From a phage, in sequence record PZ386966.1: a DNA stretch of 64,000 nt. The stretch is one strand, 5' to 3'. The position numbers and the translations under genes are program-made. This document shows, piece by piece, positions 8,009-56,604 of this stretch. Within the stretch, counting starts at the first letter, position 1. Each line of letters opens with the position of its first letter. The notes under the pieces were generated by a model. That model was not told the origin of the DNA and ran no database searches. It was given only the letters and a program-made list of their open reading frames with translations.

Positions 8009-10150
8009 CGCATAAATGCCATTTTTGGCTTTCTTACGACCTTTGCTAATTTCTTGAAGAAGATTTGTATCCTGAGTGGCTCGACAGGTCAAGATGTCTT
8101 CCTCTTTATTAAGGCTGAAGTAAATACTATTTAAAGTATGCGCATCAGTTCCTGAGTACACCACGTACAAGTCATTTTCCGAATCATAATGCAAATACTT
8201 GTCAATCTCTGGGTTTAGATACTGGTCAAAATGTTTGCAATAGTATCTGCCATCATCTTGTTTGACAAACTCAACCTCTTCTTTACCCTCTGTTACTGCT
8301 TTAGTGAACTCTTTATCACCCATAAAGTTACACAGCAGTACAAGTTGCGCGCTATTCATATCTGCTGAAACAATATTAGTTCCCTCTTCACAAGTCCACA
8401 CCTCCCTCATAGGTGCTCCATAGACAGCAGCACCAGACGGTACGTTTACAATACCATATTGTGTCATACGTCCAGTTGAAGTACCAAACACCATTGCACC
8501 AGCACTAAGGCGACCATCAGGACGAATCTGGTTCAACCATCCTTTTTCATCATCCTTTGAGTTCTCAATAGTTCTGCGTCGGTGCATCAAAGTGTAGTAC
8601 TTAGCAATCTTCTGTCCAAGCTCACCTTCAATCGTATCATAAGATGATTCAGTAAGTTTTGGTGAAGTACGAATTAAGCAAGGTTCAAGTAAGTCTGTGT
8701 ACTTCTTAACAGACCAGTTATGCTCAATGTACTGGACACCTTCATGTTCAACATAGCTCAAGCCACAACGCTCAACCATCTCATCCCATTTAGGATGCTT
8801 GGTAATCATCTTTTTGTTGTCTTTGAAACGACAAACCTTAACAGGACGACCATCAGAGTCTTTCTTATAGTTCCAGTCATCAGGAATCCAACCAACTGAT
8901 TTCAAGTAGTCCTTCACAACAGCCACCTGAGTCATTCGAGAAACTTCAAACTCAATTGGTGTATATGGTGCATCAATCAAACCTGTGTAGCGACTTGACT
9001 CAAGTCCAAAGTGGTTAACAACATGACTGTTATAGTACTTCACAGTTTTAACTGTTTTTACTGGCTTCCAGTCTTTGCATTTCTTACCAATCTTTGCATT
9101 CAACTCGTTGCAAATTGCACGAGCATCCTTCATTGCTACAAAACCTTCCTTGTACTCTTCGCCAGTTACAGTGTTGGTTGGTGTATAGCAATTCCGCTTT
9201 TCAATGTTAAAAATCTTTGTAGTTGGCTTACCAAATGGCTTGATTTCATATGTCTGCATCTCACCGTTACGTACCTGCTGACGATACTTTGTCTTAGGGT
9301 ACTTGGTAATTCTTTTCAGTCCATCTGCATGACCAAACGCTTCAACATACTCATTCCAAGCTTTTGCAAACTCTTCTCCAGTGACTTTACCTTTGGTCTT
9401 AATAGTTGGTGGAAGGTGTGGTTCAACTTCTGAAGCAAGCTCATTAGTCAACTTGTCAAGTTCCTTTACATGGAACTCCATAAGCTCTTTATCAGCTTTC
9501 CAACCATTGATAGCCTGTTGACTCATCCAGAAAGATGTCTCTTTAGCTCGCATATAGGTTTCATAAGTGTCTATGCCACACTTCTTTAACTTGAGATATT
9601 CATTATCCAGTGCGCGTTTAGTTTTGGCGTTAATACGGATATCTTCTACAACACGAGTGAAGATTTCTGCATTCCACACACCCCAATGTTCAATCTCTGG
9701 TTTACGGACACCAACACGAGCACCCCATGCTGCCAAGCCATGAGCACCTTTATAGCCTTTTGGAGTTGGTCTATCCATCCACTGAACACGAGACTGGATA
9801 AGAGAGTCCTGAAAGAAATTACTCCACGGCTTACATTTTGGATTATCGAAGTTCCACAAATCAGGTGCAATATGATTGAAAACCCACCAGTCATACCCCA
9901 GACCATTATGGATACAAAGCCGTTTTGCCTTTAACGCAAACTCAATACCTTCACGTAAACCACCCTTAATGTACTTGGTATACTTGTGACCGAGGATAGG
10001 CTCATCTGTAAAGACCCATACAGGTGGCTCCTCATCGTCAGATTTATAGTCTGCGAAAGCCATGACGTGGACTTTAGTGAACTCAAGGAGTAAACCATCA
10101 GTTTCTGTATCACCAACTAAGTGTAAGTTTTTAAAATCTACGTTTTCCAT
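7970..10150 (-). CDS. DNA polymerase, family A (T7-like), N-terminal segment with 3'-5' exonuclease domain
   Basis: VGDTETDG exo motif; ends ..RKKAKNGIYA (T7 RDNAKTFIYG) then reads into the insertion to stop at 7967-7969; start at ATG 10148-10150 with GGGAG RBS. Confidence 0.8.
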
Positions 10151-10208
10151 TTGTACTCCCTCTAATTCGTTAACCCCATACATTACTGCAAAAAATTATA
10201 AAAAGCAA

Positions 10209-10232
10209 GTTGACAATGTACTTGACAAGGTG
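10209..10232 (+). promoter_or_regulatory. conserved promoter-like motif GTTGACAATGTACTTGACAAGGTG at divergent junction
   Basis: Two TTGACA hexamers 8 bp apart; near-identical copy at 56082-56105. Confidence 0.45.
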
Positions 10233-10406
10233 TTAATCTTTGCGAAGTGGGTTTTTACTTAAAAGGTTACTTAACAGTTTAACTATACAGACACTTTAAA
10301 ACTCTTAAAAGATTATTTAATAGCTTTTAAAAAGCTTTAAAGTATAACGTATAGAATACGTTAAGATAAAAGATTAAAACTTAATAGTTACTTAAAAGAG
10401 GCTTAC

Positions 10407-46664: not shown

Positions 46665-46702
46665 TCGACGCAACGGGGCTAAATAGCCCCAGATACCTTT
46701 AC

Positions 46703-46726
46703 AGCCCCATTTAAGGGGCTTTTTTA
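46703..46726 (+). terminator. intrinsic terminator ending the + strand block
   Basis: AGCCCC-ATTTA-AGGGGCT then TTTTTT. Confidence 0.65.
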
Positions 46727-46900
46727 CGTCTATGTAATAGCCTCTATACAATCCTTTCCCTTTCCTTTCCAGAGTCTATCCCACTAATTTGATAGAATCT
46801 ATCTCGTACCTTAAAAGCAATAACTCTATAGTCTACTCTATAATCTCTTATCAAATCAACTTAAATATAAGCCCATAACCCGAAAGGGAAGGGCAACCGT

Positions 46901-46927
46901 TTAATTGGTATTGTTACCAATCCCTAA
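46901..46927. repeat. 27-bp exact repeat TTAATTGGTATTGTTACCAATCCCTAA (copy 1), contains TTGGTA..TACCAA palindrome
   Basis: Second copy at 47596-47622. Confidence 0.7.
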
Positions 46928-47595
46928 ACGCTCTATAAAGCTCTATAACAGCCTTATCAACCTAACTTAAGGGATTGCATTAACTCACCTTAAAAAGCTC
47001 TTTACAGGGCTTTATAGAGGCTTAAAAGAATCTTATAAGGTTATAAGCTTTATTATCTCGTTAGCTATCTTGTGAACTACTAAAAAGGGGCTTGTTAGTA
47101 TCTTAAAAGTATGTTATAGGGGCTATAAAGTTACTCCAAAGTTACGTAAATGTTAGCCCCCTTAACATTTTCTTAACAATTTCTTAACAAACCCTACATA
47201 GTTATGCTTGTTAGCCCCTTGTTAAATCTCTGTTACAACCATGTAAAAGCCTTGTAAGAACCTTTGACATAGCCTTTAAAGCCTCTGTAAAGCCCTATAA
47301 AGAGCTATCTGTACAGTTGGGCTGTAGTTACTAGGGAGAGACTTAAAAGGGGCTATGCAGAGCTATACAGAGCTTTTAAGAGGTATGTTTAAAGAATCAC
47401 TAAGAGGGAAAGGGAACGATAAGAAAAGAAAGTTGTGTTTGTAAACAACCACTGTGACCATGTTAACAGCTTGTTAAAAAGATTAAACACTTGTTAGGAA
47501 CTTGTTAATTATCTTAACAAAATAACTCTTTAAAATTAACTTGTTAGCTCTTGTTAATCATCTGTTAAGACTCTGTAAAGACTATGTATCAACTG

Positions 47596-47622
47596 TTAAT
47601 TGGTATTGTTACCAATCCCTAA
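47596..47622. repeat. 27-bp exact repeat (copy 2)
   Basis: Identical to 46901-46927. Confidence 0.7.
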
Positions 47623-48355
47623 GAAACTGTTACGCTCTTGTTAGTTCTGTTAAGGAACTGTTAAGACCTTTGAAGGGTTGTTAAGAAGATGTGAGAACTG
47701 TTAAGAGATTGTTAAGGATATTTTAAAATTTTGCAAAGGGGGTGTTAAGGAGCTGTTAAGGGCTACCAAGCAGATATACATCTTCTACAGATATTTTTCA
47801 GTTCCTTCAAAGACCCTGAAAAATGACTTGACAGTCTTATTTTATAAAAATTTTAAAATTCTGAATAATTACCTATACAGTCTTTTAAAAATACAGGCAT
47901 AAACAGGCTTATAAGATACCTTGTTAGTACCGTGTTAGACCTTGTGAGATAAGGTCTGTGAAGATATTCCTGTTAAGTTTGTTAAAACAGTCTATATAGA
48001 GGTTTAGTAGTACCTAGTGAACACCTATAGAGAGTATCATAGCTGACATAGAGATTAAGAGGTGTATAGGGGCTTCTAAGAGGCTATAGAGAGATGGTTA
48101 AGGTGATTGTATAGGTTGTTAAGAAGGCTTGTTAGAAGAGTGTTTAGAAGGGCTATACAGAGGGGCTATTAAGACCACTAGATAGATACTAAGATACTAT
48201 ATAGTACTATATAACTATATAGAGAGTAAGATTAAGAAGGTTGTTAAGAAGGGTAGATATTTTATTCACATATGATGGTGACCCAGAGGTTGGGACAACC
48301 GATGAAATTTTATAAAAATTAAAAAGCCCCCAATTAAGGAGGCTCTTAAGATATT

Positions 48356-48949: not shown

Positions 48950-49382
48950 ACTTGTTGTCTTTGTTTTTAATGAGGTCTTCTTTTGTTACAAAGAATGTAA
49001 GCCCACATAAGTGTGTATGGTGGCTATCATACTCAAATACTTTAAGTAAGTATTCACCGTCATCATAAACATGCTCTACTACACCTTTTGCAACAACCTT
49101 TCCAGTCTTGAAATCTTTAAGTGGGTATACATTTCCAACTTTAGGGACTGTTTTCATCTCAGGTTCTTTTAGTTTCTCACCAGCTTCTACATCACCTAGA
49201 AGATGAGAACTTTCAAAAGCTACATATTGCATATAAGCCTCTGAGCAATCCCAGATAAAACAATGTACAAGAGCCTTAGCAGCATGTCTTGAACAATTCA
49301 ACTTATCGCAAATCTCTTTGTACATTTCATCTTTAGTTGAGTTGTCGAGCATTGCTTTTCGAACTGTTTCTTTAACTTTCAT
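48918..49382 (-). CDS. hypothetical protein
   Basis: 154 aa ORF. Confidence 0.45.
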   Translation of the reverse strand: MKVKETVRKAMLDNSTKDEMYKEICDKLNCSRHAAKALVHCFIWDCSEAYMQYVAFESSHLLGDVEAGEKLKEPEMKTVPKVGNVYPLKDFKTGKVVAKGVVEHVYDDGEYLLKVFEYDSHHTHLCGLTFFVTKEDLIKNKDNKFAVPDYQVLR

Positions 49383-49800
49383 AAGCTCTCCGAATAACCC
49401 TATTAAGCATCTCTAAAGTCAGCTTTCCAGATTCTAAATGTGGCATAATAAGTTTTAAAGCTTTTTCAACATCATGCACAACATCTATTATACCTTCTTC
49501 ATAGGCTTCTACAAGGATATCTTTTACATTTTGTGATTTACCTTTTTGTGGTATCACTAGACGCATATCAAACTCATTTGCTTGAGGATGGTTCTTACCT
49601 TGCCAATAACCGTCTTTGTTAAAGCTGATGTAGTCACCATGATAAAAGTGTACACCATTAGCTTTAAACTTTTCCAGCACAAGGCATTGAATGGGGTATT
49701 CAGTATTCCAATCCCTAACTCCTATAGCCTTCACTGTTGCGATATACTTCTGTGTTTTTGCATCTATGATGTCAAGTTCTTGACCAGCTATGATTTGCAT
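49372..49800 (-). CDS. hypothetical protein
   Basis: 142 aa ORF. Confidence 0.45.
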   Translation of the reverse strand: MQIIAGQELDIIDAKTQKYIATVKAIGVRDWNTEYPIQCLVLEKFKANGVHFYHGDYISFNKDGYWQGKNHPQANEFDMRLVIPQKGKSQNVKDILVEAYEEGIIDVVHDVEKALKLIMPHLESGKLTLEMLNRVIRRAYES

Positions 49801-55840: not shown

Positions 55841-56081
55841 AGATAATCCTCTTGTCTTCTGTAATTTTGAAAGAACAGGTACAGACCAATTTCAGAGGAC
55901 GAATAGTAGATTAATTCTACCCTTTTTGATTCCTTACAGTGATTGGTATTCTTACCTTTCTTCGGTTTATTTGATTTTCTCATTAAGTCTCCTTTGTAGA
56001 ACAAGGCAGACCTACAGCTTTAAGTAAGATGGTACAGTAATCCATACAACAAGTCAAGAACTATTGCAAGTTAAAAAAGTT

Positions 56082-56105
56082 GTTGACAAAGTACTTGACA
56101 AGGTG
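56082..56105 (+). promoter_or_regulatory. conserved promoter-like motif GTTGACAAAGTACTTGACAAGGTG at divergent junction
   Basis: 23/24 identical to motif at 10209-10232. Confidence 0.45.
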
Positions 56106-56232
56106 TAGGCTTATAAATACTTAGAAGATAACTTAAAAGGTTCCTCTAAAAAGGCTATTTAAACAGATATCTTTCTGGATATCTATCTTTTATCTTAAAA
56201 GCCTTTTAAGAGGTCTTATAAGAGGCATACCA

Positions 56233-56604
56233 ATGAAAAACAGAACAAACAAAGGCCAGTTTAAAAAAGGCCAATCTGGAAACCCATCTGGAAGACCAAA
56301 AGGCTCTCGTAACAAAAGCTCACTTGTAAAAGCTCAACTGACCATTGATAATTCTGCTGAGTTTGCTGCAAAGTTGTTTGAGGCGGTTGTTACAAGGGAT
56401 GCTGCTAAGCTTGCAGAGTTCGGTTTGACGACTGACGATGTAAACCTGAAGTCGATGATGGAGGCTGGTAAAACCATCATGACTCACTCAGCAGGTGAGA
56501 TGAAAGCGATTGCAGCAGACACTAAGAAGACCCCTGATAATGGTGGTCAGTCTCAGACAGATAACAAACCAACGTTCTCTGCTGTAGCGACTCTCAAAAA
56601 ATAA
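56233..56604 (+). CDS. hypothetical protein with basic GNPSGRPKG N-terminal motif
   Basis: 123 aa; FKKGQSGNPSGRPKGSRNK N-terminus. Confidence 0.45.
   Translation: MKNRTNKGQFKKGQSGNPSGRPKGSRNKSSLVKAQLTIDNSAEFAAKLFEAVVTRDAAKLAEFGLTTDDVNLKSMMEAGKTIMTHSAGEMKAIAADTKKTPDNGGQSQTDNKPTFSAVATLKK

Follow-up and report, generated by a model that had tools for sequence, protein, structure and literature searches.

A conserved non-coding region of a Felix O1-like phage is a probable concatemer junction with a 612-bp direct terminal repeat and carries a putative 21-nt mobile hairpin

The Felix O1-like myoviruses of Escherichia, Salmonella, Shigella and Citrobacter form the genus Felixounavirus, whose members UAB_Phi87, E9 and Pr103Blw are reported to have fixed, non-permuted ends. 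The work on UAB_Phi87 gives a direct terminal repeat (DTR) of 608 bp, determined by Bal31 digestion and run-off sequencing, and places the Felix O1-type large terminase subunit, TerL, in a DTR cluster (PMC4837284), while PhageTerm assigned a DTR of 581 bp to Pr103Blw (PMC8303462) and provided the DTR ends in the announcement of E9. For Felix O1 itself, 'short terminal repeats' were inferred in the original paper. Here we analysed a phage sequence of 64,000 nt (record PZ386966.1, hereafter the window), and in particular its region 46730-48320, which lacks sizeable open reading frames (ORFs) and is built from reiterated short words. A first, sequence-only reading had offered replication origins, packaging or terminal-repeat junctions, protein-binding arrays and non-coding RNAs (ncRNAs) as possible roles for this region. 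We propose that it is very probably a concatemer junction containing a 612-bp DTR, and that it also hosts two copies of a 21-nt hairpin that may be mobile.

The window is a Felixounavirus genome, which also carries the 24-tRNA cluster typical of the genus as well as nucleotide-metabolism and replication genes. A megablast search with positions 46700-48350 matched 257 phage records, nearly all from Felixounavirus or close relatives, the best full-length matches being ~86-89% identical. Most of these GenBank records start at arbitrary points. Exact terminal duplications are present in E9 (580 bp), CRP22 (579 bp) and ECP2307 (592 bp), and their boundaries are identical, each repeat beginning at GCCCCCTTAACA and finishing at GGGCTACC. 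Mapping these boundaries onto the window delimited the 612-bp DTR (Table 1), a sequence expected by homology to lie at both virion ends. The record of UAB_69, a phage from the laboratory behind the UAB_Phi87 end experiment, annotates a 'DTR' on the homologous stretch, at most 2 nt off at each side. The UAB_Phi87 record (JN225449.1, 87,603 bp) starts in the tRNA region without a terminal duplication, and because its ends are not directly readable we measured the distance between the same boundary motifs, which was 614 bp; the terminal sequence was not found in the supplementary text of the UAB_Phi87 paper. The circular record SLAM_phiST56 and MET-P1-301 gave no clean terminal duplication in a prefix test and were not used.

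From these comparisons we consider it very likely that region 46730-48320 represents the concatemer junction at which both ends of a Felix O1-like chromosome meet. The layout runs from the terminator of the plus-strand gene block through a 429-bp right-end flank, the DTR and a 554-bp left-end flank to the terminator of the minus-strand block, and the DTR, judged from sequence, is expected to be present once in this circularised or concatemer-type record and twice in virion DNA. Among the roles first suggested, the packaging or terminal-repeat junction is thus the one that the comparison with related phages bears out, as the DTR of the genus maps mid-region at 47156-47767, its boundaries are shared and both the region and its repeat words are conserved. 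Such a junction is known biology for the genus, the DTR having already been determined experimentally in a relative. Its fine architecture, with boundary blocks and a phased array of oriented words that are conserved throughout the subfamily, appears undescribed, and the accessible parts of the Felix O1, wV8 and UAB_Phi87 papers contain no mention of the phased words or the conserved boundary blocks. For annotation, the placement fixes the physical genome ends, with the left end at 47156, the right end at 47767 and the DTR counted twice.

The conservation of this DNA also bears on whether the region might be decayed coding sequence or a low-complexity assembly artefact, as its AT-richness, repetitiveness and many stop codons could suggest. 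In 187 of the 257 records, many of them independently assembled, at least 80% of the query was covered at a single collinear place, and most matching records annotate no gene over 46730-48320, a few having a 'repeat_region' or tiny hypothetical ORFs. In an alignment of 14 genomes (the window and 13 relatives), mean conservation was 0.82 in the right-end flank, 0.85 in the DTR and 0.95 in the left-end flank, compared with 0.74-0.98 in neighbouring coding DNA, so that the non-coding region is conserved as much as the flanking genes or more. Decay or artefact is effectively refuted by this coverage and conservation, and we regard it as scarcely credible. The left-end flank, ~95% conserved across the 13 relatives, exceeds its adjacent genes in this respect.

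Both DTR boundaries lie in strongly conserved blocks. The left block, AAGTTACGTAAATG(C/T)TA^GCCCCCTTAACA (the caret marks the boundary), is near-invariant in Felixounavirus, Mooglevirus and Suspvirus, and the right block, TTTTGCAAAGG...TGTTAAGGGCTACC^AAGCAGATATACA, is near-identical in the same genera. The boundary motifs TA^GCCCCCTTAACA and GGGCTACC^AAGCAG are accordingly conserved in three Ounavirinae genera and homologous in a fourth; in the consensus form TA^GCCCCCTT(A/T)ACA and TGTT(A/T)AGGGCTACC^AAGCAGATATACA they occur in three genera and partly in the Erwinia Kolesnikvirus. Within this last genus, the record of Erwinia phage vEam_W_28 has a 442-bp DTR with recognisable boundary blocks, in which TTTTGCAAAGG and AGATATACA are retained. 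The right boundary block is the candidate terminase recognition and cut site. The left terminal motif is conserved at 0.96-0.99, and the positions of its three inverted words are identical in E9, ECP2307 and SUSP2, two of the three (18 and 29) being found also in Mordin. Both virion ends, read inward, open with GCCC-TTAACA-N4-CTTAACA, and the reverse complement of the right end agrees with the left motif at 24 of 33 positions, a similarity that is rare in the window as a whole (0.15%). As both ends open inward with the same arrangement, one recognition mode could serve both cuts.

The reiterated short words described in the sequence-only reading are indeed over-represented, CTTGTTAG occurring seven times in the region and not once on the plus strand of the other 62 kb. 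The pattern TGTTA[AG] occurs 27 times on the plus and five times on the minus strand of the region, compared with 1.3 expected per strand, the enrichment being ~20-fold for the region as a whole and rising to ~60-fold within the main array. The earlier count of over 25 TGTTAA-type copies in the interval 47450-47760 was too high, as strict matching found 16 TGTTA[AG] on the plus and two on the minus strand (exact TGTTAA, 13 and two), and 25 is exceeded only when one mismatch and both strands are allowed (21 + 12). In 1000 Markov shuffles the count nevertheless averaged 0.85 and never exceeded six, as against the 16 words observed. The words are phased at 10-10.5 bp, with a periodicity of 10.5 bp in the main array, and the spectral peak observed in the DTR was reached by none of 200 shuffles. 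Conservation is 0.94-0.99 at the five bases that make up the TGTTA[AG] core (0.99 at four of them), compared with 0.85-0.91 in the spacers, and 21 of the 27 plus-strand words are intact in all 13 relatives. The word layout of the DTR is broadly alike in four genera, with three inverted TAACA words (7, 18 and 29) followed by three to five forward TGTTA words (54-109), a word-poor middle and 14-16 forward words in the last 300 bp. The main array is found also in Mooglevirus, Suspvirus and the Erwinia Kolesnikvirus, the Erwinia phage keeping the layout less exactly and with fewer words. The most likely role of the TGTTAA-type words, we infer, is that of an array bound by a protein that recognises the ends.

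Some DTR phages have their origins and ends close together. Reiterated and helically phased words in strongly conserved non-coding DNA, next to an AT-rich stretch at 47800-47900 (GC 0.30), might therefore be taken for the iterons of an initiator, and the region for a replication origin or a segment containing one, as had also been suggested. However, the words are 6-8 bp long and present in dozens of copies, unlike iterons of 17-22 bp, of which none were found in the region; a single DnaA-box-like site (48262) is at chance level, the whole window having fewer such boxes than chance predicts, and the adjacent genes are all of unknown function, none being a recognisable initiator. The cumulative GC-skew maximum at this place corresponds to a convergence point, and the skew here mostly follows the convergent transcription, with values of about −0.3 in the right-end flank and up to +0.48 in the left-end flank. 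An origin reading is thus quite improbable.

A second possibility is that the words are operators for a general DNA- or RNA-binding regulator or architectural protein of phage or host, the terminal region acting as a large sink or silencing zone and not as a packaging signal. The one-helical-turn phasing would suit cooperative binding or DNA bending, and the words CTTAAAAG, CTATACAG, CTTAACAG and CTTATAAG cluster just downstream of a duplicated promoter block, GTTGACAAWGTACTTGACAAGGTGT, at 10200-10400 and 56080-56230. By contrast, strict TGTTA[AG] words are concentrated in the DTR and oriented to the ends, with the same pattern in four genera, which ties them to the termini. We consider the general-regulator reading unlikely on the whole, although it is compatible with a packaging role and the two do not exclude each other. 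As a separate observation, the divergent intergenic regions 10205-10400 and 56075-56235 have in common a duplicated promoter-like block, GTTGACAA(T/A)GTACTTGACAAGGTGT, and the leaders after both blocks are rich in the same four terminal-region words. In the rest of the window CTTAAAAG occurs 14 times on the plus and twice on the minus strand, abutting a Shine-Dalgarno-like AGAGG in the cases inspected.

With the concatemer junction as the preferred reading, we propose how the ends could be generated. Replicating or circularly assembled DNA would contain one DTR between the last genes of two convergent, end-proximal gene blocks, and the terminase, following the T7/T3 paradigm, would recognise this junction and cut at both boundary motifs, on opposite strands and 612 bp apart. 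Strand-displacement synthesis could then duplicate the 612 bp and leave a full DTR at each end of the packaged genome. The TGTTAA-type words, aligned on one face of the helix, would be the probable docking array for the recognition factor, which could be a TerS-like (small terminase subunit) or an end-binding protein. The boundary blocks together with the phased, oriented array offer concrete, mutable candidates for the recognition site and, in a genus without an identified small terminase subunit, make the question of how the junction is found testable.

Several points weigh against this interpretation. The DTR of the present phage is placed by homology to relatives rather than by observation, and in the UAB_Phi87 record the two motifs lie 6 bp further apart than the published 608 bp. 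The proposed staggered nicks follow the T7 model, the words have no known binding protein, and according to the Felix O1 paper the genus lacks an identified small terminase subunit. The 24-of-33 similarity of the two ends is modest for word-rich DNA, being equalled by 5.7% of comparisons within the same region. In addition, words of the same family cluster near 10.2 kb and 56.1 kb, in each case downstream of an early promoter block; they may therefore be bound by a DNA- or RNA-binding factor of wider function and not be dedicated to packaging.

The boundaries of the region conform to what had been read from the letters. No ORF of at least 60 codons lies within 46752-48355, the longest being 47 aa (47541-47684), and no ORF of at least 30 codons was found in the left-end flank (47768-48321). 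Terminators face the region from both sides (46703-46720 followed by a T-run on the plus strand, and 48347-48322 on the minus strand), and terminators are annotated at the homologous places in Mordin and Moogle for the former and in wV8, Mordin and Moogle for the latter. These terminators also bear on the proposal that the conserved non-coding flanks encode one or more ncRNAs. The ~95% conservation of the left-end flank is in keeping with such a role, and its minus strand folds better than shuffles (z = −3.07); this value was judged insufficient because the inverted DNA repeats of word arrays can explain the low energy, and the plus strand reached only z = −1.4. No match to an Rfam family was obtained, the only hit in Rfam 15 being Phe_leader at 26 bits, below its gathering score of 55 and located on the minus-strand terminator. 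Sigma-70-like promoters were at shuffle level (11 found, 8.1 ± 2.5 expected), and each neighbouring transcription unit is closed by a terminator directed at the region. An ncRNA function is accordingly very unlikely.

Table 1 Features of the junction region and of the hairpin sites. Positions refer to the window (to the equivalent place in it for hairpin sites of other phages) unless another sequence is named.
Feature	Position	Strand	Remarks
Intrinsic terminator, end of plus-strand gene block toward right genome end	46703..46726	+	Stem-loop AGCCCCATTTAAGGGGCT, then T-run
Right-end non-coding flank, 429 bp	46727..47155	.	C-rich on plus strand; words such as CTCTATAAAG, CTTAAAAG, CTTTATAG; no ORFs
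Hairpin copy A, outside DTR	46902..46926 (core 46904-46924)	+	TA-core-TA
DTR, 612 bp	47156..47767	.	Mapped from boundaries of E9, CRP22 and ECP2307
Left terminal motif	47156..47190	−	GCCCCCTTAACA-N4-CTTAACA-N4-CTTAACA; three inverted words at DTR positions 7, 18, 29
Main forward TGTTA(A/G) array, 16 copies	47461..47767	+	Spacing 9-11 bp or multiples; reaches right DTR boundary
Hairpin copy B, inside DTR	47597..47621 (core 47599-47619)	+	TA-core-TA
Right boundary block (candidate recognition and cut site)	47729..47780	.	Deepest conservation; sole part matching Erwinia phages by blastn
Left-end non-coding flank, 554 bp	47768..48321	.	G-rich on plus strand; words such as CTATAGAG, TTGTTAAGAAGG, CTATACAGAGG
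Intrinsic terminator, end of minus-strand gene block toward left genome end	48322..48347	−	Terminator prediction
Hairpin site	~46896		CRP22
Hairpin site	46904		This window only
Hairpin site	~47399	inverted	VpaE1
Hairpin site	~47516		wV8, SUT_S920
Hairpin site	~47541		UAB87, UAB69, SUSP2
Hairpin site	47599		This window, heid, JLBYU32
Hairpin in compared sequence L027	L027 237-257		
Hairpin in compared sequence L038	L038 7004-7024		
Empty site in compared sequence L037	L037 ~10095-10110		

A different kind of element accounts for the exact 27-bp repeat that had been noted in the region with a TTGGTA..TACCAA palindrome. Its two copies, at 46901-46927 and 47596-47622, are indeed exact, but rather than a fixed part of the junction each is a 23-bp insertion that is present in some phages and absent from others. 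The core, ATTGGTATTGTTACCAATCCC, is a hairpin with a 7-bp stem (ATTGGTA/TACCAAT), a TTGT loop and a CCC tail. Copy A is absent from 12 of the 13 aligned relatives, which read CGTT-TA-AACG, CRP22 having a copy a few bases away; copy B is shared with heid and JLBYU32, whereas the 11 others lack it and read TGT-TA-(A/G). The region is least conserved at these two copies (0.28 and 0.35) because they are insertions. The 27-bp repeat is thus not part of the proposed packaging machinery but two insertions of the 21-nt hairpin, which is carried by ~66 of the ~257 related phage records. A relationship between its TACCAA hexamer and the right cut site CTACC^AAG was considered and set aside, since this hexamer is found in the window 33 times on one strand and 39 times on the other, which makes the overlap uninformative.

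The hairpin is also found in bacterial DNA. Among 185,579 bacterial species, represented by one genome each, the exact 21-mer occurred once, in E. albertii, at a locus whose counterpart in E. coli, a chromosomal prophage remnant of ~90% identity, was found in 420 of 5426 complete genomes; the E. albertii flank had no match in the phage or plasmid collections. The E. albertii sequence reads ATCCAC-TA-core-TA-AGCG where the empty site of E. coli 23CRST024 reads ATCCAC-TA-AGCG, and in E. coli O111:H- 11128 the hairpin lies ~55 bp away at a second site that is empty in the other two genomes compared. Overall, 105 of the 5426 complete E. coli genomes contain the hairpin, and the host segment is a non-coding part of serine-recombinase prophages of E. 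coli and E. albertii. Metagenome contigs added seven copies in prophage context, five in Felix-terminal context and one odd marine match without TA flanks. All hairpin copies are identical, while their flanks differ by 10-25%.

Filled and empty versions were thus observed at six phage-terminal and two E. coli/E. albertii prophage sites, and every site except that of CRP22 was compared at the level of single bases with a clean empty counterpart. At six of these eight sites the filled form reads TA-core-TA (one of them approximately) and the empty form contains a single TA, the irregular sites being the one in UAB87 and SUSP2 and the one in CRP22. The hairpin's inverted ends are 7 bp long (ATTGGTA/TACCAAT), with an extra CCC on one side. 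Because the hairpin has filled and empty sites, occurs in both orientations and is bordered by TA on either side at six of the eight sites, its pattern appears to match a very small mobile element whose insertion duplicates TA. In exact-match scans the 21-mer was found only as a mini-element and never at the end of a larger one, although diverged ends would escape such scans; no cognate transposase was found. With a core of 21 nt, or 23 nt including the duplicated TA, the hairpin falls below the size of miniature transposons (~50-500 bp).

Taking these observations together, we find the case evenly balanced that the hairpin is a genuine, currently active ultra-small mobile element, which would insert at and duplicate TA, move within and between Felix O1-like chromosome ends and Escherichia serine-recombinase prophages, and be mobilised in trans by an enzyme of phage or host. 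A preference is possible for targets near GAAAGGGAAG or inside TGTTAA-type words, the GAAAGGGAAG flank (8-10 nt, TA) being common to one phage site and one prophage site, and this shared flank hints at either a target preference or old shared ancestry. No mention of the hairpin sequence was found in the searchable literature. If truly mobile, it would be among the smallest mobile DNAs known and a rare element common to virulent phages and prophages, and, if confirmed, it is the part of this analysis that would surprise a specialist.

Several further similarities were seen between the phage and prophage segments. A GAAAGGGAA(G) motif is located at a distance of 8-10 nt from the insertion at window site A (46883-46892) and in the O111 prophage (L038 6985-6995), and occurs also near the VpaE1 site (window 47405-47415); the 48 nt around window site A, flanks included, are 87.5% identical to the prophage site. 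In addition, a 15-nt exact match joins the right-boundary block of the DTR to the non-coding prophage segment that hosts the hairpin, the reverse complement of TTTTGCAAAGGGGGT (that is, ACCCCCTTTGCAAAA) matching between window positions 47729-47743 and L038 (E. coli O111 prophage) 8064-8078 with an E-value of 0.008, which may be due to chance.

In the surrounding genome, all genes flanking the region belong to PHROGs of unknown function, and the homologous junction in Felix O1 sits between the conserved hypothetical genes ORF23 and ORF24. No terminase domain was detected in the eight large ORFs scanned, which are DNA- and nucleotide-metabolism genes, the terminase gene not being sought across the window. 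Near the left genome end, a 142-aa ORF on the minus strand (49372-49800) has no counterpart in heid (identity 0 over 49400-49800) and is present in fjerdesal and EC6, constituting a gene-sized indel. A protein with a DUF2828/DUF7788 domain (56686-58101) lies directly upstream of the 24-tRNA array (58267-63556); judged by its position, we assume it to be the counterpart of Bas63 gp130, which the PhageMaP preprint called Ro60-like.

The junction of phage T7 offers an architectural parallel. As a literature search on the short-repeat arrays of T7 gave nothing usable, the words were counted on the sequence itself (NC_001604), in which the first 340 nt contain 11 exact copies of CCTAAAG (and no CCTAAGG), three of them inside the 160-bp repeat, with more on the right flank. 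The two junctions resemble each other, in architecture only, in having a short exact terminal repeat inside non-coding DNA built from a reiterated 6-8-bp word, and a TAAAG-like core is common to the T7 words (CCTAAAG, CATAAAG and CTTAAAG) and to CTATAAAG, CTGTAAAG and CTTTAAAG here. Both T7 and this type of phage infect E. coli, and a shared host factor for the words is conceivable. In contrast, T7 represents a podovirus family with its own RNA polymerase and has no sequence homology with the present junction, whose significant DNA matches were all from Ounavirinae and none from Autographiviridae. T7 also has its early promoters at the left end and needs RNA polymerase to pause at its junction, whereas here convergent transcription is stopped by terminators at both ends, and no counterpart of the pause is known.

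The pac site of phage P1 consists of repeated TGATC(A/G) hexamers, and P1 packages by headful, giving permuted ends. The idea of a packaging site made of many hexamers bound cooperatively is common to P1-type pac sites and the present array, but the ends are fixed here. Iteron origins likewise have direct repeats at helical spacing, whereas the words of the junction are much shorter and far more numerous.

For the hairpin, the 'very small mobile repeated elements' of cyanobacteria constitute one comparison class. Others are the TA-duplicating miniature inverted-repeat transposable elements (MITEs) derived from IS630/Tc1-mariner, such as Correia and RUP, and the repetitive extragenic palindromic (REP) and REPIN elements (PMC3116915). 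With these classes the hairpin has in common filled and empty sites, a TA on each side (at six of eight well-defined sites), a palindromic body, insertion in either orientation and copies that are identical within diverged DNA. It differs from MITEs in being far smaller; its inverted ends measure 7 bp, and its CCC tail is asymmetric. It also lacks a GTAG-type REP head and is confined to two kinds of phage-derived non-coding DNA. We know of no MITE as small as 21 nt. The junction itself agrees with the Felixounavirus DTRs of UAB_Phi87, UAB_69 and Pr103Blw in homologous sequence, boundary motifs, similar length and gene position, and differs from them in nothing essential, the present phage adding two 21-nt hairpin insertions to the terminal architecture of its genus.

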